Below, piece by piece: positions 16,393-54,508 of a DNA stretch of 64,000 nucleotides (position 1 is its first letter; every line of letters begins with the position of its first letter). This stretch comes from Escherichia coli (GTDB lineage Bacteria; Pseudomonadota; Gammaproteobacteria; Enterobacterales; Enterobacteriaceae), in the NCBI RefSeq assembly GCF_045037415.1, contig NZ_CP173438.1. One strand, 5' to 3'. The notes below the pieces were generated by a model. The model was given only the letters and a program-made list of their open reading frames with translations, searched no databases and had not been told where the DNA came from. The position numbers were made by a program, and so were the translations under genes.

Positions 16393-16468
16393 TGGTGGGT
16401 CGTGCAGGATTCGAACCTGCGACCAATTGATTAAAAGTCAACTGCTCTACCAACTGAGCTAACGACCC
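16393..16468 (-). tRNA. lysQ: tRNA-Lys(UUU)
   Basis: 76-nt exact match to recalled E. coli tRNA-Lys incl. CCA; symbol by position in operon. Confidence 0.93.
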
Positions 16469-16501
16469 CTTGCGGGATTATGCTGCTTTAATCATTCAGG
16501 A

Positions 16502-16577
16502 TGGTGGGTCGTGCAGGATTCGAACCTGCGACCAATTGATTAAAAGTCAACTGCTCTACCAACTGAGCTAACGACCC
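16502..16577 (-). tRNA. lysZ: tRNA-Lys(UUU)
   Basis: identical 76-nt tRNA-Lys copy. Confidence 0.93.
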
Positions 16578-16625
16578 ATACGGGTGTTACCTGAAAGATT
16601 TCTACTCGGAACCAATGTTTAAAAT

Positions 16626-16701
16626 TGGTGGGTCGTGCAGGATTCGAACCTGCGACCAATTGATTAAAAGTCAACTGCTCTACCAACTGAGCTAACGACC
16701 C
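16626..16701 (-). tRNA. lysY: tRNA-Lys(UUU)
   Basis: identical 76-nt tRNA-Lys copy. Confidence 0.93.
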
Positions 16702-16704
16702 GAG

Positions 16705-16780
16705 TGGTGGGTGATGACGGGATCGAACCGCCGACCCCCTCCTTGTAAGGGAGGTGCTCTCCCAGCTGAGCTAATCACCC
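16705..16780 (-). tRNA. valZ: tRNA-Val(UAC)
   Basis: 76-nt match to recalled E. coli tRNA-Val(UAC) incl. CCA; 3-nt spacer to next tRNA. Confidence 0.9.
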
Positions 16781-16831
16781 GATACTGCGCTGGATACTAC
16801 AAACTACTTCCACCGAACCCACCGTAATCAG

Positions 16832-16907
16832 TGGTGGGTCGTGCAGGATTCGAACCTGCGACCAATTGATTAAAAGTCAACTGCTCTACCAACTGAGCTA
16901 ACGACCC
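16832..16907 (-). tRNA. lysW: tRNA-Lys(UUU)
   Basis: identical 76-nt tRNA-Lys copy. Confidence 0.93.
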
Positions 16908-16909
16908 GG

Positions 16910-16985
16910 TGGTGGGTGATGACGGGATCGAACCGCCGACCCCCTCCTTGTAAGGGAGGTGCTCTCCCAGCTGAGCTAATCACCC
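16910..16985 (-). tRNA. valT: tRNA-Val(UAC)
   Basis: 76-nt tRNA-Val copy; 2-nt spacer to lysW. Confidence 0.9.
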
Positions 16986-17020
16986 GATACTACGCTGGAT
17001 ACTACAACTAACTATGTTAG

Positions 17021-17096
17021 TGGTGGGTCGTGCAGGATTCGAACCTGCGACCAATTGATTAAAAGTCAACTGCTCTACCAACTGAGCTAACGACCC
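17021..17096 (-). tRNA. lysT: tRNA-Lys(UUU)
   Basis: identical 76-nt tRNA-Lys copy; first gene of the operon. Confidence 0.93.
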
Positions 17097-17260: not shown

Positions 17261-18052
17261 TTACATCGCGTTCAGACGTTTTTGCGCCTGTTTAGCGCCA
17301 TCAGTACCAGGGTATTTACTGATAACCTGCTGGTATACGGCTTTCGCTTTTGCGGTGTCACCTTTGTCCTGCATGATGACGCCGACTTTAAACATCGCAT
17401 CTGCAGCCTTCGGTGACTTCGGATAGTTTTTCACTACCGAAGCAAAATAATACGCCGCATCATCTTTTTTACCCTTGTTGTAGTTTAACTGACCCAGCCA
17501 ATAATTGGCGTTTGGCAGGTAAGTTGAATCAGGGTAATTTTTGATGAAATTCTGAAATGCCACCATTGCGTCATCCTGGCGGGATTTATCCTGCACCAGC
17601 GCAATAGCTGCATTGTAATCCGTGTTTGCATCACCGCTTTTCACCGGCGCGCCAGCATTCGAAGTACCAGCATCAGCTGTCGGCGTCGTTGATGCCACCA
17701 CACCGCTTTGATCGCCGCTGGTTGATTGCGCCGCTGCACCACCGCTGCTGAGGCTGTCGATCTGCAACAGGATCTGCTTTTGCCGCTCCACGACCTGATT
17801 CAGTTGATACTGATTTTCCTGAATCTGACCACGCAGGGAATCAATATCGGATTGATTATCAGAGAGTTGTTGCTGGAGTTGGGTTAAAAGCTGGCTGTGA
17901 GCATTAGAAATACGCTCAAGTTGAGTGACGCGGTCTTCGACCGAGCCTGAGCCGACACTACTGATTGGTGCCTGAGCAAAAGCGGCCCAGGGGGCCGCTA
18001 TACCAACCAGTAACGACAGACTCAATAGTTGATGTCTGAAGTTACTGCTCAT
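17261..18052 (-). CDS. cpoB: cell division coordinator CpoB (TPR periplasmic protein)
   Basis: 263 aa; signal peptide, coiled-coil, C-terminal TPR; last gene of tol-pal cluster. Confidence 0.95.
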   Translation of the reverse strand: MSSNFRHQLLSLSLLVGIAAPWAAFAQAPISSVGSGSVEDRVTQLERISNAHSQLLTQLQQQLSDNQSDIDSLRGQIQENQYQLNQVVERQKQILLQIDSLSSGGAAAQSTSGDQSGVVASTTPTADAGTSNAGAPVKSGDANTDYNAAIALVQDKSRQDDAMVAFQNFIKNYPDSTYLPNANYWLGQLNYNKGKKDDAAYYFASVVKNYPKSPKAADAMFKVGVIMQDKGDTAKAKAVYQQVISKYPGTDGAKQAQKRLNAM

Positions 18053-18061
18053 GCAATTCTC

Positions 18062-18607
<546 letters not shown>

Positions 18608-41068: not shown

Positions 41069-41255
41069 CTGCATTTCTTTTGTAGGCCGGATAAGGCATT
41101 CACGCCGCATCCGGCGCTGTTTGCCTGATGCGACGCTTGCGCGTCTTATCAGGCCTACGGTTTCTGCATTTCTTTTGTAGGCCGGATAAGGCGTTCACGC
41201 CGCATCCGGCACTGGTTGCCTGATGCGACGCTTGTGCGTCTTATCAGGCCTACGG
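41069..41255. repeat. BIME: two tandem ~95-bp copies, each a REP pair
   Basis: 41069-41163 and 41164-41258 near-identical; each holds GCCGGATAAGGCGTTCACGCCGCATCCGGC and GCCTGATGCGACGCTTGCGCGTCTTATCAGGCCTACGG. Confidence 0.85.
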
Positions 41256-45193: not shown

Positions 45194-46477
45194 ATGGCTG
45201 ATACAAAAGCAAAACTCACCCTCAACGGGGACACAGCTGTTGAACTGGATGTGCTGAAAGGCACGCTGGGTCAAGATGTTATTGATATCCGTACTCTCGG
45301 TTCAAAAGGTGTGTTCACCTTTGACCCAGGCTTCACTTCAACCGCATCCTGCGAATCTAAAATTACTTTTATTGATGGTGATGAAGGTATTTTGCTGCAC
45401 CGCGGTTTCCCGATCGATCAGCTGGCGACCGATTCTAACTACCTGGAAGTTTGTTACATCCTGCTGAATGGTGAAAAACCGACTCAGGAACAGTATGACG
45501 AATTTAAAACTACGGTGACCCGTCATACCATGATCCACGAGCAGATTACCCGTCTGTTCCATGCTTTCCGTCGCGACTCGCATCCAATGGCAGTCATGTG
45601 TGGTATTACCGGCGCGCTGGCAGCGTTCTATCACGACTCGCTGGATGTTAACAATCCTCGTCATCGTGAAATTGCCGCGTTCCGCCTGCTGTCAAAAATG
45701 CCGACCATGGCCGCGATGTGTTACAAGTATTCCATTGGTCAGCCATTTGTTTACCCGCGCAACGATCTCTCCTACGCCGGTAACTTCCTGAATATGATGT
45801 TCTCCACACCGTGCGAACCGTATGAAGTTAATCCGATTCTGGAACGTGCTATGGACCGTATTCTGATCCTGCACGCTGACCATGAACAGAACGCCTCCAC
45901 CTCCACCGTGCGTACCGCTGGCTCTTCGGGTGCGAACCCGTTTGCCTGTATCGCAGCAGGTATTGCTTCACTGTGGGGACCTGCGCACGGTGGTGCTAAC
46001 GAAGCGGCGCTGAAAATGCTGGAAGAAATCAGCTCCGTTAAACACATTCCGGAATTTGTTCGTCGTGCGAAAGACAAAAATGATTCTTTCCGCCTGATGG
46101 GCTTCGGTCATCGCGTGTACAAAAACTACGACCCGCGCGCCACCGTAATGCGTGAAACCTGCCATGAAGTGCTGAAAGAGCTGGGCACCAAAGATGACCT
46201 GCTGGAAGTGGCTATGGAGCTGGAAAACATCGCGCTGAACGACCCGTACTTTATCGAGAAAAAACTGTACCCGAACGTCGATTTCTACTCTGGTATCATC
46301 CTGAAAGCGATGGGTATTCCGTCTTCTATGTTCACCGTGATCTTCGCTATGGCACGTACGGTTGGCTGGATCGCCCACTGGAGCGAAATGCACAGTGACG
46401 GTATGAAGATTGCCCGTCCGCGTCAGCTGTATACCGGCTACGCGCAGCGTGATTTTAAGTCGGATATTAAGAAGTAA
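45194..46477 (+). CDS. gltA: citrate synthase
   Basis: 427 aa starting [23 protein letters not shown]; divergent from sdhC across a 708-bp regulatory region. Confidence 0.98.
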
Positions 46478-46494
46478 AAATGACACCGACAAAA

Positions 46495-46519
46495 CCCTGC
46501 GTGGACACGCAGGGTTTTT
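46495..46519. terminator. shared hairpin terminator between convergent gltA and TRAP permease gene
   Basis: CCCTGCGT-ggac-ACGCAGGG followed by TTTTT on the plus strand and a shorter T-run on the minus strand. Confidence 0.7.
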
Positions 46520-46523
46520 AATT

Positions 46524-47834
46524 CTACACCAGCAGCAAAGATATTGCCGGAATATAGGTAATGACCAACAGAAGTAAAATAAGACTGATCAGTAATGGCA
46601 CCGCTTCACGCATAAATTGCCCGACAGAAACCTGTACGGTATTACATACCAGCAGCATCACCGTTCCGACAGGTGGTGATAACGTTCCTAACGATAAGTT
46701 GAGGATCATAATGATGCCAAAATGCACCGGATCAATGCCAAAATGAGCCACCACGGGTTTAAGTAATGGGACTAATATCAGCAGAATGGCACTACCTTCA
46801 AGGAACATGCCAAGCACCAGCAGCAATAGATTGATAATCAATAAAAAGACGTATTTATTATCGGTCAGAGAAGTTACAAACTCCGCAACCGTGATACCTG
46901 CCCGCTCAAGGGAAAATATCCAGCCCAGCGCGGCACTCGCCATAATGATTAACATGACCGATGCCGTGGAACGCGCCGTCTCAGAGAGTGCTGTAAATAC
47001 ATGGCTGATTTTCAGTTCGCGATAAATTACAAAACCAATAAACATTACCAATAATACTGCTACCGCTCCGGCTTCCGTTGGCGTAAAGATATTTGCCCGA
47101 ATACCACCGATAACCGCAACAATTAAGAACAGTGCTGGCCAGGCCTGCACCAGCGCCACTGACACTTCTTTCGGTTTTGGCCAGTGTTCGCTGGAAGGTT
47201 TTAAACCGCGACGAATAGCCACCAACCATACGGTAACGATCAACATGGCGGAGCACAGCAGACCTGGCAGGATCCCGGCCATAAACATGGAGCCGATGGA
47301 GACATCCGCCACCAGTCCGTAAAGGATCAGTGCAATACCCGGTGGAATAATTGGTGTAATCAGCGAACCACTTGCCGTTATCGCCGCCGCAAAGCCACGG
47401 GAATAACCTTTCTGTTCCATTTCCGGCACCATCATGCGCGATAACATTGCGGCATCCGCCAGATTTGAGGCACTGACACCGCCCATCATGGTACTGACCA
47501 GAATATTAGCCCCACCCAGGCCACCGCGCATTCTGCCAATCAACACGTTGGCAATTTGCAAAATACGCGCGGCAATACCGGTATAGCTCATTAACGTGCC
47601 TAATAAGATAAAAAACGGAATAGCTAACAGCGAAGGGGTTTGCGTCGTGGCAATCAAACGCTGAATTGCCACCATTAACGGCACATTTGAATAGCAAAGG
47701 AAGTAGGTCAGAATGCCGCAAAACATCGCCAGCCATACCGGCATATTGATAAATAAACAGACGAACATAAGCGGAATGATCATCAGCCAGTTATCCAGCC
47801 AGCTTCCCGCCAGTAATTCACTCAATGCTGTCAT
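46524..47834 (-). CDS. TRAP transporter large permease subunit (DctM family)
   Basis: 436-aa polytopic membrane protein; 1-nt overlap with upstream DctQ-like gene. Confidence 0.85.
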   Translation of the reverse strand: MTALSELLAGSWLDNWLMIIPLMFVCLFINMPVWLAMFCGILTYFLCYSNVPLMVAIQRLIATTQTPSLLAIPFFILLGTLMSYTGIAARILQIANVLIGRMRGGLGGANILVSTMMGGVSASNLADAAMLSRMMVPEMEQKGYSRGFAAAITASGSLITPIIPPGIALILYGLVADVSIGSMFMAGILPGLLCSAMLIVTVWLVAIRRGLKPSSEHWPKPKEVSVALVQAWPALFLIVAVIGGIRANIFTPTEAGAVAVLLVMFIGFVIYRELKISHVFTALSETARSTASVMLIIMASAALGWIFSLERAGITVAEFVTSLTDNKYVFLLIINLLLLVLGMFLEGSAILLILVPLLKPVVAHFGIDPVHFGIIMILNLSLGTLSPPVGTVMLLVCNTVQVSVGQFMREAVPLLISLILLLLVITYIPAISLLLV

Positions 47835-48295
47835 TATTCACCTTCTTTGCGTGGCGTTTTCTTGATCAGTTGTAAGGCAGTAAAACAGGCGACACCGATA
47901 GCGCCAACCGTGACGGCAATATCGATCCAAAACCAGGATATTTTTAATATTTGCGTGGTTTTAAAGGCTGTCCCGGCAGCTAATTTCCATGCTGACCAGG
48001 CCATGACCACCAGCAAAATAATAGACATCAGAGAGACTAAAAACGCTAATATACGTTGCCCGCGTGAAGTAAGTGCATCGGCTAAAAATGGAATCGATAA
48101 ATGGGTATTATCTCGTTCAGCAACAACCGCACCAAACATGACTACCCAAATCATTAATAAACCGGAAACCTCTTCTGTCCACTGTAATGGCATATGAAAA
48201 CAGTAACGCATTATTACCGCAGCAATGGTCATGATTACCAATATAAAGAGCGTTAATACCGCAGCAACTTCAATCATTTTCCCTAAAAGACGCAT
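47834..48295 (-). CDS. TRAP transporter small permease subunit (DctQ family)
   Basis: about 153 aa with 4 predicted TM helices; start set at MRLLGKM (GAGG RBS) rather than ORF-track start at 48331. Confidence 0.75.
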   Translation of the reverse strand: MRLLGKMIEVAAVLTLFILVIMTIAAVIMRYCFHMPLQWTEEVSGLLMIWVVMFGAVVAERDNTHLSIPFLADALTSRGQRILAFLVSLMSIILLVVMAWSAWKLAAGTAFKTTQILKISWFWIDIAVTVGAIGVACFTALQLIKKTPRKEGE

Positions 48296-48354
48296 AAACA
48301 CCTCTGCTCTTAACGGTCGGTGCCGAAACACCGACCAGTCCTTATGCCATGAAG

Positions 48355-49323
48355 TTATTTCAGCTGTTGCTGAATAGTGTCATACAAACCAGGGGTCCAT
48401 TCCGGGAATTGTTGATAGACTTTTAAGGCTTTTTCTTTGAAAGGGGCGACGTCAGGATAGATGATTTCCACGCCCTGCTCCTGCATGGTTTTCAACATTG
48501 TCGCATCCTGCTCAGTGGTAATTTTCTGGCTATATAAACCAGCTTCATACGCTGTCTGGTGAATAATATCTAACTGCGCAGGTGTCAGGGTACTGAAAAA
48601 CGCTTCGCCACCCAACCATAATGATGTATTGGTCAGATAGTTCACCATTGACAGATATTTCGCCTGCTCATGCAGCTTTTGCCCATAGAGAACAGAAACC
48701 GGGTTTTCCACACCATCGATCATCCCCTGAGTCAGCGCCGGATAAACATCTCCCAGCGGCATTGGTGTTGGGGTTGCGCCCATCGCTTCGATAGCTTTAA
48801 TCTGCATGACGTTATTCGGCACGCGGATCTTCATCCCTTTCAAGTCTTCAGGTGTACGAATCGGTTTTTTAGCAATGATCTGCCTGGTACCGTACAGATA
48901 GTTGCTCATGACAATATGCACACCTTTTTCCCGTAGTTTCTGTTCTTTTTGTTTAAACCAGTCACTGGCATAAATCGCAAACAGTTTCTGCGGATCTTCG
49001 GTTAAATAAGGCCCAAACAATATTCCCAAGTCTGCATCGTAGTCAGTTAAAAATCCTACATCACTGATGGTGATAATATTCATCCCCATCAACGCTTGTT
49101 CAGTAATATCTTGTTTAGAACCTAACTGTGAACTTGGGTAAAGTTCGAAAACAATATCTCCATTGCTTTTTTTCTTCACAAGTTCTGCCCAGTGCTTCAC
49201 TACTGTATCCGCTGGCTCGCCGGGGTTACTTTCATAGGCGATTTTGATAGTTACCGGTGCGGCATTCAGCATCGGACTAAATAAAGCTAAAAGAAATAAA
49301 AGTGGTGTCAGTAATTTTTTCAT
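48355..49323 (-). CDS. TRAP transporter periplasmic solute-binding protein (DctP family)
   Basis: 322 aa; signal peptide MKKLLTPLLFLLALFSPMLNA; DctP-like length and organisation. Confidence 0.85.
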   Translation of the reverse strand: MKKLLTPLLFLLALFSPMLNAAPVTIKIAYESNPGEPADTVVKHWAELVKKKSNGDIVFELYPSSQLGSKQDITEQALMGMNIITISDVGFLTDYDADLGILFGPYLTEDPQKLFAIYASDWFKQKEQKLREKGVHIVMSNYLYGTRQIIAKKPIRTPEDLKGMKIRVPNNVMQIKAIEAMGATPTPMPLGDVYPALTQGMIDGVENPVSVLYGQKLHEQAKYLSMVNYLTNTSLWLGGEAFFSTLTPAQLDIIHQTAYEAGLYSQKITTEQDATMLKTMQEQGVEIIYPDVAPFKEKALKVYQQFPEWTPGLYDTIQQQLK

Positions 49324-49350
49324 TATTATTACCTGTAAGAGCTTTATCGA

Positions 49351-50547
49351 TTAACGGGGATCTGCCCGACAGACTGCACTTTTGCTGTAATCAAATGCTT
49401 TATACGTTAAAACAAACTCCTGATGTTCCAGTCGTTCTGCGGCACAATATTGACCGTTGGCGACATGTTCAATCACCTGCATAATATCGTCTGCAATATC
49501 GTCGAGCGTTGCGCCTTCGCTAATTACACGACCGGCATTAACGTCCATATCGTCAGATAAATGCTCCCACGTCTGCGGGTTATTACACACTTTAATAATA
49601 GGAGCGATCACTGAACCAATAACTGAACCGCGACCTGTGGTAAATAACACCATATGACAGCCAGAGGCGATAAGTTCCAGTGCTTCTGAGGAATCGTTAA
49701 TATTCGGATACCCAAAACGAGGTTCACCATCAGGCACCACGTCCATCAACCAAAGCCCAGGAAAGGGCGTTTGTTGCGTCGGCAAAATAACGCCAGCAAT
49801 CAGCGCATCGCCCGACTTGGTATAAGCCCCAAGGGATTTTTCTTCCTGAGTGGTTAAGCCGCCTTCAGCATTACCGTTAGAAAAACTCCCCAGCCCCATC
49901 AAACTGTAATAACGTTCGGCTTTTGTCATTGCCACTTCGATGGCATCACGTGCCTGCGAACTAGCCGCGCGCGACATCATATGCTGCTCACAACCAAGCA
50001 ACTCACCGCTTTCTTCAAAAATACAGGTAGCCCCTTTCTCCAGCAGTTGGTCAAAGGCACGTCCTACTGCCGGGTTACCCGTGATACCACTGGTGCCATC
50101 GGAGCCACCGCAGATAGTACCAACCACCAGGTCGCTCCAGTTCAGGATACAACGCGGTGTATCCGCAAGCTGTTCCAGCATTTCAGCGACCAACTGCTTA
50201 CCCAGAGTAATGGTGTTGGTCGTGCCTTTATTTTCCTGAATGACCAGCGTATGGCACGGTCGCCCACTTTCTCGTACTTCTTGCTCCAGCCGACGGCGAT
50301 CGAAATTCTCGCACCCCAGCGAAATAATCAGTACACCACCTACGTTGCTATGAGTCGCCAGATTTTTCACCAGCCGATAGCCATAATCGCTGGGATAACA
50401 ACCTGAAAAACCAAAATACTGCACGTCGTGACAAGGAAATCCTTCGGCAATCTTTTTAGCGACATGGCTGGCACACTCCACCATAAAGATTACCTGCACA
50501 GTATTACGAATACCTGGTCGACCATTTTGCCGTACATAACCTTCCAT
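49351..50547 (-). CDS. UxaA/GarD-family sugar-acid dehydratase, large catalytic subunit
   Basis: 398 aa resembling the C-terminal catalytic domain of altronate/galactarate dehydratases; start overlaps stop of upstream SAF gene. Confidence 0.75.
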   Translation of the reverse strand: MEGYVRQNGRPGIRNTVQVIFMVECASHVAKKIAEGFPCHDVQYFGFSGCYPSDYGYRLVKNLATHSNVGGVLIISLGCENFDRRRLEQEVRESGRPCHTLVIQENKGTTNTITLGKQLVAEMLEQLADTPRCILNWSDLVVGTICGGSDGTSGITGNPAVGRAFDQLLEKGATCIFEESGELLGCEQHMMSRAASSQARDAIEVAMTKAERYYSLMGLGSFSNGNAEGGLTTQEEKSLGAYTKSGDALIAGVILPTQQTPFPGLWLMDVVPDGEPRFGYPNINDSSEALELIASGCHMVLFTTGRGSVIGSVIAPIIKVCNNPQTWEHLSDDMDVNAGRVISEGATLDDIADDIMQVIEHVANGQYCAAERLEHQEFVLTYKAFDYSKSAVCRADPR

Positions 50548-50858
50548 TATGCTTTTTCCTCTGACTGATAGCCGGCATCATCATGATGAAAAATGGCGAT
50601 GGCATTGCTGGCAAGATTATGGGAATGCACATGTTCACCCATGGCAATATCGCGAGTGGCGTGTCCGATAATGGCGCCGTATTTCAGAATCGAATCACCA
50701 TTGTTCAGCGCTTCGCAGGCCAGTTTGTGCCCCAGGGTAACGGAACTACAGGCCACCATTTCCCCCTCATCCCACCAGACAATATCGCCACTGGCGATGT
50801 CATTCAGCGCGACTACACAGTTATCTTTGGCATGTAGCTTTAACGCACGTTTGCGCAT
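50547..50858 (-). CDS. UxaA-family dehydratase small subunit (SAF domain)
   Basis: about 103 aa from MRKRALKLHAKDNCVVAL with perfect GGAGG RBS; ORF-track start at 50963 judged an over-extension. Confidence 0.7.
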   Translation of the reverse strand: MRKRALKLHAKDNCVVALNDIASGDIVWWDEGEMVACSSVTLGHKLACEALNNGDSILKYGAIIGHATRDIAMGEHVHSHNLASNAIAIFHHDDAGYQSEEKA

Positions 50859-50872
50859 AATTCCTCCGTACA

Positions 50873-51628
50873 TCAGAAGCCGATCAATGCGCCGCCATCC
50901 ACCACCAGCACCTGACCACTGACAAACGCCGCTGCGTCTGAAGCCAGATAAACCGCAGCCCAACCGATATCCTCCGGCTTGCCGAATTTTTTCATCGGGG
51001 TACGACCCAGGATTTTGTTACGGCGTTCGTCATCACCTTCAATGGCCTTACGCAACATTGGTGTATCGATCCAGCCTGGCGCAATACCATTGACGCGAAT
51101 CCCATGAACGGCAAGCTCCGTGGTCATACCGCGAATCATGCCGAGATAGGCTGACTTCGCTGCGCTGTAGCCAGTAACCAGAGGCTGCCCAAGAAATGAG
51201 GTCATCGATGCAGTAAAAAGCACACAGCCTTTACCGCGTTGTTTCATATGCGGCACCAGCGCTTTGGTTAACGCAAATGCGCCGACTACGTGAACGTCGA
51301 GTACTGACTCAAAATCACTGACGCTCATCTCTTCAATCGGTTTTTTGCAGTGATTGCCTGCGTTATTGACCAGGATATCGATAGCCCCGTGTTCGCTAAT
51401 AAGCACATCAACTTTTTCCTGCGCGGCTGCGGTATCCCCGACATCCATTTGTATCCAACTGGCCTGCGACCCCAATGTTCCGGCGGTCGCTTGCGCCAGC
51501 TCGCCGTTCAGGTCAGCAATAATGACCTTCGCCCCGCTGACTATCATGCATTTCGCCATTGCCAGCCCCAGCCCACTGGCTGCACCGGTGATCAACGCGG
51601 TTTTGTTATGTAAAGAAAAAGCATTCAT
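50873..51628 (-). CDS. short-chain dehydrogenase/reductase, KduD/IdnO-like
   Basis: 251 aa; TGAASGLG cofactor motif and YSAAK catalytic motif. Confidence 0.85.
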   Translation of the reverse strand: MNAFSLHNKTALITGAASGLGLAMAKCMIVSGAKVIIADLNGELAQATAGTLGSQASWIQMDVGDTAAAQEKVDVLISEHGAIDILVNNAGNHCKKPIEEMSVSDFESVLDVHVVGAFALTKALVPHMKQRGKGCVLFTASMTSFLGQPLVTGYSAAKSAYLGMIRGMTTELAVHGIRVNGIAPGWIDTPMLRKAIEGDDERRNKILGRTPMKKFGKPEDIGWAAVYLASDAAAFVSGQVLVVDGGALIGF

Positions 51629-51639
51629 GGTGTCGCTCC

Positions 51640-52653
51640 TTAAAGGTCAATGAGGATTTTGGTATACGCGCCGGGATCACTTGCCCAGTCGCTAAAAGCG
51701 TGATCAGCCTGTTCCAGCGGGTAGTGAGCACTCACCAGATTGCTGACCGGATAACGCCCGGACTCCATCAATGCCAGCACGGCACGAAAATCCGCCACGG
51801 TGGCATTGCGCGAACCACGGATATCCAGTTCTTTCATCAGGAACTGCGCACTCTGATAACTCACTGGCTGTTTGGCGTAACCGACATAAACCACACGACC
51901 GCTAAACGCCACCAACCCTGTAGCCTGTTCAATGGTTTGTTGATTACCCACCGCTTCAATCACCACTTCCGGGCCGCGACCGTCATTTAACAGCACCAGT
52001 TCTGCCGCCACGTCACATTGCTGCGAATTAAGAAAACGTTGCGCACCGCATTCCAGGGCAATGTTCCGCTTGCGATCATCAATATCGATAGCAATTACGC
52101 GCGCCCCCATGGCGGATGCCGCGGCGATAGCGCCAAGGCCAATTACCCCACAACCGATAACTGCGACCCATTCACCCACATTAATTTGCGCACGTCTGGC
52201 CGCATGTAGTCCCACGGCCAGCGGTTCTACCAGCGCTAACTCATCAACACTTAAGGCATTACAGACAATGACTTTATGTGCAGGCATCGTCAGTTGTTGC
52301 GCCATCCCCCCCTGACGTTGCACACCAAGAGTTTGGTTGTTTTTACAGGCGTTAGGACGACCGCTCAGACAGGAGCTGCACACGCCACACTCAGTGCAAG
52401 GCAGAACGACCACCCGGTCACCTGGCTTGATCGCCCCTGCCATATCGCCAGTTGCCAGCACCGTGCCGCCAATTTCATGCCCCGGAATACAGGGATAATT
52501 AACCAGCGGATTTAGTCCCCGCCAGGTATTGAGGTCAGAACCACACAGTCCGACACGCTCAACATTGATTAGCACTTCTCCTTTACCGCAGACAGGTTCG
52601 GGGATATCAACAAATCGCGCCTGACTTCCCTGCTCAATGGTTAATGCCTTCAT
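51640..52653 (-). CDS. Zn-dependent medium-chain polyol/sugar-acid dehydrogenase
   Basis: 337 aa; GHE catalytic-Zn motif, structural-Zn Cys cluster, GxGxxG Rossmann motif. Confidence 0.85.
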   Translation of the reverse strand: MKALTIEQGSQARFVDIPEPVCGKGEVLINVERVGLCGSDLNTWRGLNPLVNYPCIPGHEIGGTVLATGDMAGAIKPGDRVVVLPCTECGVCSSCLSGRPNACKNNQTLGVQRQGGMAQQLTMPAHKVIVCNALSVDELALVEPLAVGLHAARRAQINVGEWVAVIGCGVIGLGAIAAASAMGARVIAIDIDDRKRNIALECGAQRFLNSQQCDVAAELVLLNDGRGPEVVIEAVGNQQTIEQATGLVAFSGRVVYVGYAKQPVSYQSAQFLMKELDIRGSRNATVADFRAVLALMESGRYPVSNLVSAHYPLEQADHAFSDWASDPGAYTKILIDL

Positions 52654-52665
52654 TCATTGCTCTCC

Positions 52666-53352
52666 TTACATTACGCCGAAGGTTTCAAAGGCCTGTACCG
52701 TGCTCATGCCATCACTGATGGCTTTGCGCACTTCACTTTCAGTTGCCACTTTTTCCAGGGCCTGGGTAATAACTTCTTTCTCAACAACCTGGGGAATAAT
52801 CAGTAATCCGTCACGATCACCAAACACGATATCGCCCGGATTCACTCGCACGCCGTGAAATTCAATAGGTACGCCGAAGTCGATGACCTTGCCGCGCGGA
52901 CCTTGATCCTGTGCGTAAGTGCCATGACAAAAAGTGGGAAATTTCAATTCAAGAATTTCAGCAGAGTCACGGGCGTAACCATCGAGTACCGCACCTGCTG
53001 CTTTCAGATGCATGGCACGGGTAGACATCAACCCGCCCCACAAGGCATAGCGCAGAGAGCTGCCCGTAGTGATGTAAACATCGTTCTCTTTGAGGGCATC
53101 CAGCGCTTCAAACATGATGCCAAACGGTTTTTCGCCAATCGCCGTCTTACCCGACGTCGATTTGGTTTCGTAAACGTCCGACTCCAGCACCGGCATTGCC
53201 CGGCCTGCCACCACCGTATTCACATCCAGCGGCTTGATTGCCGGAGAAACAAACTGGTGCATATAGCCCAGCGTGTCGAGAATATCGCCAACCACGGCGG
53301 TAAATAGCCGGGTTTTCATCAAAGCAAAAAGTTCGTTATCACTCTTCCACAT
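52666..53352 (-). CDS. RraA-family protein, putative class II 4-hydroxy-2-oxoacid aldolase
   Basis: about 228 aa from MWKSDNEL (ATG with AGGA RBS); RraA-like fold inferred by recall; first gene of the operon. Confidence 0.6.
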   Translation of the reverse strand: MWKSDNELFALMKTRLFTAVVGDILDTLGYMHQFVSPAIKPLDVNTVVAGRAMPVLESDVYETKSTSGKTAIGEKPFGIMFEALDALKENDVYITTGSSLRYALWGGLMSTRAMHLKAAGAVLDGYARDSAEILELKFPTFCHGTYAQDQGPRGKVIDFGVPIEFHGVRVNPGDIVFGDRDGLLIIPQVVEKEVITQALEKVATESEVRKAISDGMSTVQAFETFGVM

Positions 53353-53361
53353 TATTTTCGT

Positions 53362-53390
53362 CCTGTAAGCCTGTTTAACAGGTTTACAGG
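53362..53390. promoter_or_regulatory. nested inverted-repeat candidate operator
   Basis: CCTGTAAGCCTGTTTAACAGGTTTACAGG: two CCTGT arms then two ACAGG arms; inner tGTttaACa fits GntR-type GT-Nx-AC; 10-38 bp upstream of the first operon gene. Confidence 0.5.
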
Positions 53391-53615
53391 GTAAGGAGAA
53401 AAAGCGCACAATACTGCGAAGGGCGTCACGAAAAAGTTGTGTATTTACTATTTCTTCGCCACTCTTTCACACAATATGTCTTTGATTCGCACTGCATGGC
53501 GGGCGCACAGGCGCAGTAGTCTATTGATAATCAAGGGTTCTGGAGGAAAATATGAAGGATACAGTCCCGGTATTCTGGATTTCACCGACCAGGAAAAAGT
53601 ACAACAGGAGTAAAA

Positions 53616-54329
53616 ATGAGTGAGAGTGCGTTATTGACCAGCGTAACGTTATCGTCACAGGTCAAAAATCATATTCTTAATCTGATCGCCGAACAAAAAT
53701 TGACACCGGGGATGCCAGTTCCCAGTGAAGTTCAGCTGATTCAGAAATTGGGTGTCAGTCGGGGTATTGTGCGTGAGGCCTATCGTTCACTTGCCGCCCT
53801 GGGGATTCTGGAAACGCACAGCGGTAAAGTGCCACGAATCAAAAAATTTGATGATGAAGTGCTGCGCGTGGTGTTTGGATTTGCCCTGGCGACCGAACAA
53901 GTGACAACAGAGCAAATTCTTCAAGTACGCCGCTGGCTGGAGTTGGGCGTTGTGGAAGCTGCTGCCCGTAATGGCGAAGAGGAAGATTTTGCTAACCTAC
54001 GGGCTGAAATGGCAAAAATCCGCGAACAGTTCAATGATGTTGAAAGCTTTATCACCCATGATATCCGCTTCCATCAGTTACTTGCCGTTGCCTCAAAAAA
54101 TCCGCTTTTTATGATGTTATTGCAGGCATTACATCAGCAGTTGCGGCAATCCATCCAGGAGGGTTTAAACGCCCAAAGCGATCAGAAAGAGTATGGCAAT
54201 CACATCATCACACTACACCAGAAAATCTGCGATGCTGTGTGTGCCAGGGATGTCGAAACGGCGACTCAAGCCATGAAATCACACTTCGACAGCCCGGTCA
54301 GTGCACTGATCAATAATTCCTCGTCATAA
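53616..54329 (+). CDS. GntR-family (FadR/FCD subfamily) transcriptional regulator
   Basis: 237 aa; N-terminal HTH (KLGVSRGIVREAYRSL), C-terminal all-helical FCD-like domain; divergent from the catabolic operon. Confidence 0.85.
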   Translation: MSESALLTSVTLSSQVKNHILNLIAEQKLTPGMPVPSEVQLIQKLGVSRGIVREAYRSLAALGILETHSGKVPRIKKFDDEVLRVVFGFALATEQVTTEQILQVRRWLELGVVEAAARNGEEEDFANLRAEMAKIREQFNDVESFITHDIRFHQLLAVASKNPLFMMLLQALHQQLRQSIQEGLNAQSDQKEYGNHIITLHQKICDAVCARDVETATQAMKSHFDSPVSALINNSSS

Positions 54330-54508
54330 GACTTATCTCAGTTCAATCGTTTACTCTTCCCTCTTTTACAAACGAGAGGGAGACAACGGTACTTAATACG
54401 CCCTTTAGCCAAAATCTGTCTTTTTCTTGATTACCGCTATTTTTTCGTTGAGGCGCATTCTTTATGCTGTATCGATACACCAAAGGTAAGTTAAACAGGG
54501 AGTGACGG

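Follow-up and report, generated by a model that had tools for sequence, protein, structure and literature searches.

Two adjacent open reading frames (ORFs) on the minus strand of the analyzed window, a stretch of 64,000 nucleotides of Escherichia coli DNA, are a real and intact two-subunit form of a known sugar-acid dehydratase. The gene pair probably encodes a heteromeric hexonate dehydratase of the UxaA/GarD superfamily (COG2721), which is predicted to be iron-dependent.

Structure and family of the gene pair

The small-subunit gene (50858..50547) starts MRKRALKLHAKDN and encodes a 103-aa protein with a SAF (beta-clip) domain, and the large-subunit gene (50547..49351) encodes a 398-aa catalytic protein with GD_AH_second and GD_AH_C domains, as defined by the ORF list and Pfam. 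As read from the sequence, the two genes overlap in a minus-strand TAATG (50545..50549), in which one base is common to the TAA of the small ORF (50549-50547) and the ATG of the large ORF (50547-50545). A GGAGG ribosome-binding site (50863..50867, minus strand) is located 4 nt 5' of the small-subunit ATG, and a GAGG Shine–Dalgarno-like motif (50558..50561, minus strand) is present within the 3'-terminal part of the small gene, 10 nt before the large-subunit ATG. The initial annotation had described two separate ORFs, the TAATG overlap and the GGAGG motif without stating the strand, and its coordinates prove exact. PGAP/RefSeq calls the identical CDS pair (WP_001295877.1, small; WP_000399432.1, large) and names both products 'UxaA family hydrolase'. 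The stop/start overlap is consistent with co-production of the subunits in matched amounts.

HMM matches, an alignment with the fused enzymes UxaA and GarD, and the predicted fold confirm the UxaA-family membership and the split SAF/catalytic architecture proposed in the initial annotation. The Pfam models for the SAF and catalytic domains all match, with SAF (PF08666, 5.8e-11) in the small ORF and GD_AH_second (PF04295, 6.3e-27) and GD_AH_C (PF20629, 4.1e-75) in the large ORF. The small ORF also matches 3K3S, an N-terminal fragment of UxaA (62.7 bits, E 4.1e-16), and the large ORF matches the GarD structure 6U7L (2.7e-31). The NCBIfam GarD equivalog TIGR03248 is not reached, as the small and large ORFs score 38 and 161.9 bits against a cut-off of 730.85. 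As previously indicated, K-12 UxaA (495 aa) and GarD (523 aa) each consist of one chain, and the small and large subunits taken together align end to end with both of them (about 32% and 28% identity, respectively). In these alignments, the break between the small and large subunits corresponds to the variable inter-domain linker of UxaA/GarD, with no sequence lost. Across 18 large subunits, residues C25, C50, C79, and C146 do not vary, and they are aligned with Cys residues of K-12 UxaA/GarD. Four Cys residues are conserved in UxaA/GarD dehydratases and are proposed iron ligands (PMC6336799).

An AF2 model was built on one concatenated chain consisting of the small subunit, a linker and the large subunit (pLDDT 84.3, pTM 0.86). 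The high pTM of this linked model is suggestive of physical association between the two subunits. The sole full-length PDB match of the model is 6U7L (E 1e-34, TM 0.71/0.78), the structure of galactarate dehydratase GarD (EC 4.2.1.42), and the other PDB matches are only N-domain fragments of UxaA and GarD. The domain orientation of GarD is not reproduced in the model, because the overall rmsd from 6U7L is 8.6 Å. In Foldseek, the model has 44% identity to 3K3S and superposes on it at 1.1–1.3 Å.

UxaA (D-altronate dehydratase, EC 4.2.1.7, b3091) has the same order of SAF, GD_AH_second and GD_AH_C domains and the same four Cys residues as the window enzyme. The predicted chemistry, dehydration of a hexonate across C2–C3 to a 2-keto-3-deoxy acid, is also the same, and the proposed substrate may be identical. 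Unlike UxaA, which is a single chain, the window enzyme is produced from two genes, is encoded in an accessory island, has a short-chain-type (SDR) partner instead of UxaB, and is accompanied by an RraA-like protein.

Conservation and precedent of the split

A search of 5426 complete E. coli genomes found the pair in 660 of them, with at least 98.6% identity, and all 25 records displayed for these 660 genomes show it as two UxaA family hydrolase CDS. Nearly all of the best 120 homologs of the large subunit (118) are about 390–415 aa long with no SAF domain on record; the exceptions are a SAF fusion of 531 aa and a protein of 560 aa. In 80 of 85 related loci belonging to several phyla, a separate SAF ORF directly precedes the large gene, and a SAF fragment is found at a contig edge in two further loci of the 85. 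The small and large genes overlap in 31 of the 80 loci, and the gap is 30 nt or less in 71. In a neighbor-joining tree constructed without bootstrap, the large subunit groups with split enzymes and is separated from the fused UxaA and GarD; a single clade contains all the split enzymes including the window enzyme, and most of its members derive from L-fucose clusters. The split is the ancestral state of a large and widespread subfamily.

Conservation of the split, in hundreds of genomes within E. coli and also between phyla, excludes a frameshift. The initial annotation had raised the idea that a frameshift or sequencing error divides one single-chain UxaA-like gene (a pseudogene), which now has next to no probability: the core E. 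coli paralogs are single-chain, and nothing else favors it. The same arrangement occurs in 660 independently assembled genomes and in E. albertii, and small-subunit proteins of 103 aa that belong to the same 90% cluster are present in E. fergusonii and E. whittamii. In addition, separate SAF ORFs recur over several phyla, both ORFs possess a start codon and a Shine–Dalgarno motif of their own, and the break in the linker leaves no sequence missing.

The split is not novel, as the architecture was previously described for SuyAB and for a heteromeric L-fuconate dehydratase (PMC6336799) and is reflected in database entries named 'altronate dehydratase small/large subunit'. The finding is ordinary in this respect because the split form is known and widespread. 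The L-fuconate dehydratase of Paraburkholderia mimosarum (A19U_RS0100650/0100655), whose assignment is based on gene context and unpublished data, has the same small/large two-gene architecture according to the published description (PMC6336799). SuyAB, a (2R)-sulfolactate sulfo-lyase (EC 4.4.1.24), is a heteromeric superfamily member without the four conserved Cys residues; as described, it differs from the window enzyme in this feature, in its C–S cleavage and in its gene context (PMC6336799).

The accessory island and its operon

The gene pair is located in an accessory island of about 8 kb (46441..54419), which lies between gltA and abrB in place of K-12 ybgOPQD, annotated in K-12 as a fimbrial operon; the break-points were determined by BLASTN against K-12. 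The island is present in 660–667 of the 5426 complete E. coli genomes (~12%, about one in eight), is always chromosomal, and is carried by many ST131 clinical isolates among others. Horizontal acquisition, which the initial annotation had deduced from the split architecture, is reasonable for an accessory island of this kind, but the split itself is no evidence of transfer. Base composition gives no clear foreign signal (43–55% GC in the island vs 44–57% in the flanks).

The island contains a seven-gene operon for an RraA-like protein, a Zn-dependent alcohol dehydrogenase (Zn-ADH), an SDR oxidoreductase, both subunits of the dehydratase and a TRAP transporter, together with a divergent GntR-family regulator gene. 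The first operon gene (52666..53352, minus strand) encodes the 228-aa RraA-like protein ('RraA family protein' in PGAP), a proposed 2-keto-3-deoxy-hexonate aldolase. Its NCBIfam matches are to the RraA/HMG-CHA aldolase superfamily and are all below cut-off; the gene co-occurs with the SAF and large-subunit genes in many lineages. The 337-aa Zn-ADH (51640..52653, minus strand) is polyol/aldonate dehydrogenase-like, with matches to L-idonate 5-dehydrogenase (NCBIfam) and to RspB and sorbitol dehydrogenases (PDB), and is a proposed analog of L-galactonate 5-dehydrogenase. Orthology of Zn-ADH to LgoD is not supported, the identity being only 35%.

The 251-aa SDR (50873..51628, minus strand) is gluconate-5-dehydrogenase/KduD-like in NCBIfam and PDB comparisons and is a proposed 5-keto-hexonate (D-tagaturonate) reductase. 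Orthology of the SDR to L-KDF 4-dehydrogenase is not supported, as it has 35% identity to a KDF-dehydrogenase-like SDR of a Sphingomonas L-fucose cluster, and structures of the 8XWK series are not among the best 60 PDB matches listed for it. The TRAP transporter consists of the 322-aa solute-binding protein DctP (48355..49323, minus strand; NCBIfam), which is 68% identical to PDB 4OVT (Ochrobactrum anthropi Oant_3902), and the membrane subunits DctQ (47834-48295) and DctM (46524-47834), which span 46524..48295 on the minus strand (NCBIfam, with PGAP coordinates). None of the operon proteins reaches an equivalog-level NCBIfam name.

The 237-aa FadR/GntR-family regulator (53616..54329, plus strand; NCBIfam, PGAP) is divergently transcribed, and the module also occurs together with a GntR-family gene in Sodalis, Propionivibrio, Succinivibrionaceae, and Mesorhizobium. 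A palindrome with two 14-nt arms, CCTGTAAGCCTGTT-T-AACAGGTTTACAGG (53362..53390), is located 10 nt 5' of the start codon of the RraA-like gene. It occurs only once in the window, where the number expected by chance is 0, is conserved in E. albertii, and is a candidate operator. Promoter and terminator scans gave no signals above shuffled expectation. Literature searches found no study of the operon, and a search on the island in ExPEC yielded nothing beyond a brief reference to an 'altronate hydrolase' that is unique to one ST131 isolate.

Candidate substrates and pathways

The initial annotation had left the substrate specificity undefined, but gene context narrows the candidates to the hexonates D-altronate, L-galactonate, and L-fuconate, which have the same C2–C4 configuration. 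The best explanation, which we hold with slightly less than even confidence, is that the operon constitutes an alternative catabolic route for L-galactonate (possibly also L-fuconate), with an altronate-type dehydration by the split enzyme. The TRAP transporter would import the aldonate, L-galactonate or possibly L-fuconate, and Zn-ADH would oxidize its C5 hydroxyl group to produce a 5-keto acid (D-tagaturonate), which the SDR would reduce to the C5 epimer (D-altronate). The split dehydratase would then eliminate water across C2–C3 of D-altronate to yield a 2-keto-3-deoxy-hexonate (KDG). The RraA-like protein might cleave KDG to pyruvate and a C3 aldehyde; alternatively, KDG might be taken by core KdgK/Eda.

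In the E. coli idn pathway, C5 of a hexonate is epimerized by the pair of L-idonate 5-dehydrogenase and gluconate 5-dehydrogenase, and the resemblance of the island Zn-ADH and SDR to L-idonate 5-dehydrogenase and gluconate 5-dehydrogenase/KduD, respectively, argues for such an epimerization. The LgoD–UxaB–UxaA and IdnD/IdnO systems follow the same logic, in which a Zn-ADH, a keto-acid reductase and a UxaA-family dehydratase act under a GntR-type regulator. The island differs from LgoD–UxaB–UxaA in that all the enzymes are non-orthologous, an SDR is used instead of the mannitol-dehydrogenase-type UxaB, the dehydratase is split, and an extra RraA-like gene is present.

The contexts of relatives in four lineages also support the epimerization route. 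In the lgo locus of Citrobacter farmeri, a 72%-identical DctP with its DctQM is present in place of LgoT, and its neighbors are LgoD (84%) and LgoR (87%). In Salipiger, a 66%-identical homolog is encoded beside a Zn-ADH, a reductase of the UxaB type and a fused UxaA, a set that corresponds to the classical L-galactonate route. The transporter family is common to the island and these lgo-type loci. The Propionivibrio ortholog of the large subunit, the nearest outside the enterics (71% identity), occurs with an SDR (72%) and an RraA-like protein (61%) in a galacturonate/pectin cluster that also encodes UxaC, a pectin acetylesterase resembling PaeX and a TRAP binding protein highly similar to 4N15/4N17/4LN5. 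In this gene context, tagaturonate would be supplied to the SDR and then to the split dehydratase. In Mesorhizobium, the same eight genes recur.

Several observations point away from the epimerization route. It would duplicate the core lgoD-uxaB-uxaA pathway, and the island Zn-ADH has the low identity to LgoD given above. The large subunit is closer to enzymes of oxidative L-fucose clusters (55–58% identity) than to true UxaA (30%). The ligand of 4OVT, the closest solved DctP homolog, is presumably L-fuconate. In addition, the RraA-like gene, which is strictly co-conserved, would be unnecessary in E. coli if the product were plain KDG.

The main rival is a direct dehydration of L-fuconate (or L-galactonate), which is possible but rather doubtful. 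After TRAP import, the split enzyme would yield 2-keto-3-deoxy-L-fuconate, the RraA-like protein would act as a new-type aldolase to produce pyruvate and L-lactaldehyde, and the SDR and Zn-ADH would process the aldehyde or a side substrate. This would give E. coli a capability that is otherwise absent. Most of the split clade resides in IclR-AKR-SAF-large-SDR-FAH-RhaM clusters, which represent the oxidative L-fucose route, and the DctP identity to 4OVT, which we take to be an L-fuconate binder, fits the same substrate. In Akkermansiaceae and Methylacidiphilum, the gene order is mutarotase, RraA-like protein, SAF, large subunit, L-fucose dehydrogenase (336.9 bits vs a cut-off of 300) and a lactonase-like protein; in Pedobacter and Aestuariivivens, FucP is directly next (343.9 and 466.7 bits vs a cut-off of 280.4). 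Among the genes annotated in the loci of these four groups, none but that for the RraA-like protein could account for the cleavage step. The heteromeric P. mimosarum pair is likewise assigned as an L-fuconate dehydratase (PMC6336799).

However, direct dehydration of L-fuconate would assign no function to the conserved SDR or to Zn-ADH. Identity to the island proteins is only 28–33% for the RraA-like proteins of the fucose loci and only 35% for the L-fucose-cluster SDR, and the nearest non-enteric ortholog resides in the galacturonate/pectin context. NCBIfam and PGAP revealed no L-fucose dehydrogenase, lactonase, KDF dehydrogenase, FAH hydrolase, or FucP in the island, which has the RraA-like protein, SDR and Zn-ADH instead; such fucose-pathway genes surround relatives with 54–58% identity. 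It is similarly conceivable, if unlikely, that the island provides a non-phosphorylative route for oxidized fucose/galactose (L-fuconate and/or L-galactonate), in which the RraA-like protein would be a new-class 2-keto-3-deoxy-(6-deoxy)hexonate aldolase acting after the split dehydratase.

An order of reactions in which dehydration comes first is improbable. L-galactonate would be converted to 2-keto-3-deoxy-L-galactonate, and Zn-ADH and the KduD-like SDR would then invert C5 through 2,5-diketo-3-deoxygluconate to yield KDG. The best named relatives of the SDR include KduD and DhuD-type 2-keto-3-deoxygluconate 5-dehydrogenases, and the transporter family is tied to L-galactonate, but this order would account neither for UxaC in the Propionivibrio cluster nor for those loci in which the SDR occurs without Zn-ADH, nor for the RraA-like protein itself. 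A (R)-sulfolactate sulfo-lyase of the SuyAB type, the sole two-subunit enzyme of the superfamily with established biochemistry, is very improbable and is rejected on the basis of the Cys signature and context: it shares the two-subunit architecture (PMC6336799), TRAP transporters can carry sulfonates and the isethionate-binding IseP is among the structural neighbors, but the four Cys residues reported to be absent in the sulfo-lyase are invariant here, NCBIfam and PGAP revealed no sulfonate-metabolism genes in the island, and all the informative contexts are sugar-acid pathways.

The split architecture is itself of modest weight, as this arrangement is common in a known enzyme family and has been named before. 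The value of the finding resides in the surrounding operon, which combines an L-galactonate/L-fuconate-type TRAP importer with an RraA-like protein. Assignment of the substrate would mend the vague annotations 'UxaA family hydrolase' and 'RraA family protein' of these proteins and of related database entries, and could define a strain-specific nutrient niche. If the non-phosphorylative aldolase route is true, ST131 and the other carriers would gain access to a sugar acid whose use by K-12-type strains is either impossible or less efficient.

The SAF and catalytic ORFs

The small ORF (50858..50547, minus strand, 103 aa) carries a Pfam SAF domain (5.8e-11), and the large ORF (50547..49351, minus strand, 398 aa) carries GD_AH_second (6.3e-27) and GD_AH_C (4.1e-75), which supports the family membership that the initial annotation had left to an HMM search. 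The coordinates proposed there for the pair, 49351-50858, match exactly two CDS named 'UxaA family hydrolase' by PGAP. At the junction, which reads ...GAA AAA GCA TAA TGG AAG G on the minus strand, the TAA stop of the small ORF and the ATG start of the large ORF share one base in TAATG; GGAGG is located 4 nt 5' of the small-ORF ATG and GAGG 10 nt 5' of the large-ORF ATG. The overlap and the GGAGG originally described are both present.

E. coli K-12 UxaA (495 aa) and GarD (523 aa) are single chains that align end to end with the small plus large subunits (32 and 28% identity, respectively). The break between the subunits corresponds to the variable linker between the SAF and first catalytic domains of UxaA/GarD, in which the fused enzymes have 10-20 additional residues compared with the pair. 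According to Watanabe et al. (PMC6336799), UxaA/GarD dehydratases share four conserved Cys residues that sulfolactate sulfo-lyase lacks; all four are invariant in the large subunit (C25, C50, C79, and C146). An AF2 model of the small subunit connected by a Gly/Ser linker to the large subunit, based on a paired alignment of 22 loci, had a pLDDT of 84 and a pTM of 0.86, and it matched no PDB entries other than GarD 6U7L (TM 0.71/0.78) and two isolated N-domains, 3K3S and 3LAZ. As the overall rmsd from 6U7L is 8.6 A, the same domain docking as in GarD cannot be claimed. The pair is very probably an intact two-subunit UxaA-family hexonate dehydratase encoded in a sugar-acid catabolic operon.

Distribution of the split architecture

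The pair is not a frameshifted single gene, a point that the initial annotation had raised for checking: of 5426 complete E. coli genomes, 660 maintain the split (1.5-kb pair at >=98.6% identity; chromosomal in all), and in 80 of 85 large-subunit-bearing loci, mostly one genome per species, the large-subunit gene is immediately preceded by a co-directional SAF-like ORF (71 within 30 nt; 31 overlapping). All 25 E. coli records displayed have two 'UxaA family hydrolase' CDS, and at least 1000 contigs encode the same proteins. The five exceptions are one true fused UxaA, three loci beginning at contig ends, two of which retain a cut SAF fragment, and a Prevotella MAG (locus L082) in which a SAF gene was not found within 18.9 kb. 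Of the 120 best large-subunit homologues in a set of 5.8 billion proteins, 118 are ~390-415 aa long and have no recorded domains beyond the two catalytic ones; the others are a 560-aa protein without SAF and P0040, a 531-aa metagenomic protein which is the sole SAF-fused one. Its linker is long and rich in Pro, Ala, and Arg, suggesting secondary re-fusion or a gene call reading through an intergenic spacer. In one E. coli genome, an IS30-like ISApl1 element interrupts the pair (NZ_CM135823.1 481995-484574; matches H1/H16).

Near relatives in E. albertii, E. fergusonii, and E. whittamii bear names including 'altronate dehydratase large subunit', which is also in use in JGI annotation, and KEGG has separate orthologue entries for the small and large subunits. 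SuyAB is listed as a heteromeric superfamily member, and a two-gene pair of Paraburkholderia mimosarum has been assigned as a heteromeric L-fuconate dehydratase (PMC6336799). As these names and assignments precede the present analysis, the split as such is not a discovery; the pair belongs to a known two-subunit subfamily, of which it is an ordinary member, and had been annotated before. Overall, the initial observation was correct and its interpretation essentially right.

In a neighbor-joining tree (no bootstraps), the split enzymes all group in a single clade, from which fused UxaA and GarD are separate. Most members, with 54-58% identity to the large subunit in the window, lie in clusters for the oxidative L-fucose pathway, which encode IclR, aldo-keto reductase, SAF, large subunit, SDR, FAH hydrolase, and RhaM. 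In Sphingomonadaceae, SAF forms the C-terminal part of the upstream aldo-keto reductase, a putative L-fucose dehydrogenase, and is not joined to the dehydratase (Sphingomonas phyllosphaerae L005 7703-9004, called gene of 433 aa; alike in L014, L019, L039, L071, and others), and the fusion gene shares 4 nt with the large-subunit gene. Two unrelated dehydratases are encoded at three loci, as a gene for an enolase-superfamily acid-sugar dehydratase adjoins the SAF and large-subunit genes (L029 8558-11188; also L082 6583-8909, where no SAF gene occurs within 18.9 kb) or lies between them (Prevotella L033 3270-6099).

The island between gltA and abrB

The window covers a part of the E. coli chromosome (mod-gal-tol/pal-cyd-mng-suc-sdh-gltA ... 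abrB-nei-pxp) in which K-12 homology ends at 46440, ~37 nt before the gltA end, and restarts at 54420, upstream of abrB; the intervening 8 kb, of unremarkable GC content, replace the ybgOPQD fimbrial operon of K-12. The junction (46441-46477) falls within the final ~37 nt of gltA, where the C-terminal citrate synthase codons are not those of K-12; the convergent dctM stop is only 46 nt from gltA. The minus-strand operon encodes RraA-like protein, Zn-ADH, SDR, SAF, large subunit, DctP, DctQ, and DctM in this order, with intergenic gaps of -1 to about 59 nt, and a FadR/GntR regulator gene is divergent from it. A near-perfect 14+14-nt palindrome, CCTGTAAGCCTGTT T AACAGGTTTACAGG (53362-53390), precedes the first operon gene by 10 nt, in the region common to both transcription units; it is unique in the window, is conserved in E. 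albertii, and may be the operator of the GntR regulator. RNA features elsewhere (16396-17096, 18023-18161, and 41085-41250) are ordinary for E. coli: seven tRNA genes at the Lys/Val tRNA cluster that is annotated in the matching genome, a thermometer element (CpoB/ybgF), and naRNA4 in two copies.

The window enzyme falls in a sister group together with those of E. albertii, Entomohabitans, Sodalis, Propionivibrio, and a Succinivibrionaceae MAG, in which the conserved partners are RraA-like (61-82% identity), SDR (69-81%), and GntR proteins, with or without Zn-ADH. This partner set recurs in Prevotella and alpha-proteobacteria, and Mesorhizobium has all eight genes, including DctP (69%).

Substrate clues and possible routes

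The island DctP shares 68% identity with PDB 4OVT (Ochrobactrum anthropi Oant_3902) and 43% with 4O8M, whose ligands are probably L-fuconate and L-galactonate, respectively. In Citrobacter farmeri, a 72% DctP orthologue and DctQM adjoin LgoD (84% to K-12) and LgoR (87%); at this lgo (L-galactonate) locus (L087 6762-11780), the DctPQM TRAP transporter replaces the L-galactonate symporter LgoT. A 66% DctP orthologue in Salipiger accompanies Zn-ADH, a UxaB-type reductase, and fused UxaA, the classical L-galactonate route. In Propionivibrio, the large-subunit orthologue (71%) occurs with UxaC and a PaeX-like pectin acetylesterase, and the TRAP binding protein there very closely resembles 4N15/4N17/4LN5, presumably hexuronate binders. 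The island Zn-ADH resembles L-idonate 5-dehydrogenase/RspB and the SDR resembles gluconate 5-dehydrogenase/KduD; orthology to LgoD and to the SDR of L-fucose clusters, respectively, was not supported (35% identity each).

D-altronate, L-galactonate, L-fuconate, and D-arabinonate have a common C2-C4 configuration, and D-altronate differs from L-galactonate at C5 only. The substrates reported for the superfamily fit this shared configuration (PMC6336799). We tentatively favor the reading that assigns a role to most island proteins, a five-step route that might well prove wrong: the TRAP transporter would import L-galactonate, and perhaps L-fuconate; Zn-ADH would oxidize C5; SDR would reduce the product to the D-altro epimer; the two-subunit enzyme would dehydrate it; and the RraA-like protein would cleave the resulting 2-keto-3-deoxy acid.

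Direct dehydration of L-fuconate or L-galactonate followed by RraA-type aldol cleavage is the main rival and somewhat less likely; the L-fucose loci of relatives speak for it. The context in Verrucomicrobia and Bacteroidota is likewise L-fucose-related: Akkermansiaceae and Methylacidiphilum loci encode, in this sequence, mutarotase, RraA-like protein, SAF, large subunit, L-fucose dehydrogenase (scoring above its NCBIfam cut-off), and a lactonase-like protein, and FucP (above cut-off) is directly next in Pedobacter and Aestuariivivens. The RraA-like gene is directly 5' of the SAF and large-subunit genes at such loci (L027 8792-12617; L074 4081-7092; L036 9026-14413; L041 9042-12457). A variant with dehydration before epimerization is very improbable.

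For cleavage of 2-keto-3-deoxy-L-fuconate, the annotated genes of the Verrucomicrobia and Bacteroidota loci offer the RraA-like protein as sole candidate, which in that role would possibly represent a new aldolase class. The modest interest of the locus lies in the uncharacterized operon and its RraA-like partner, not in the split.
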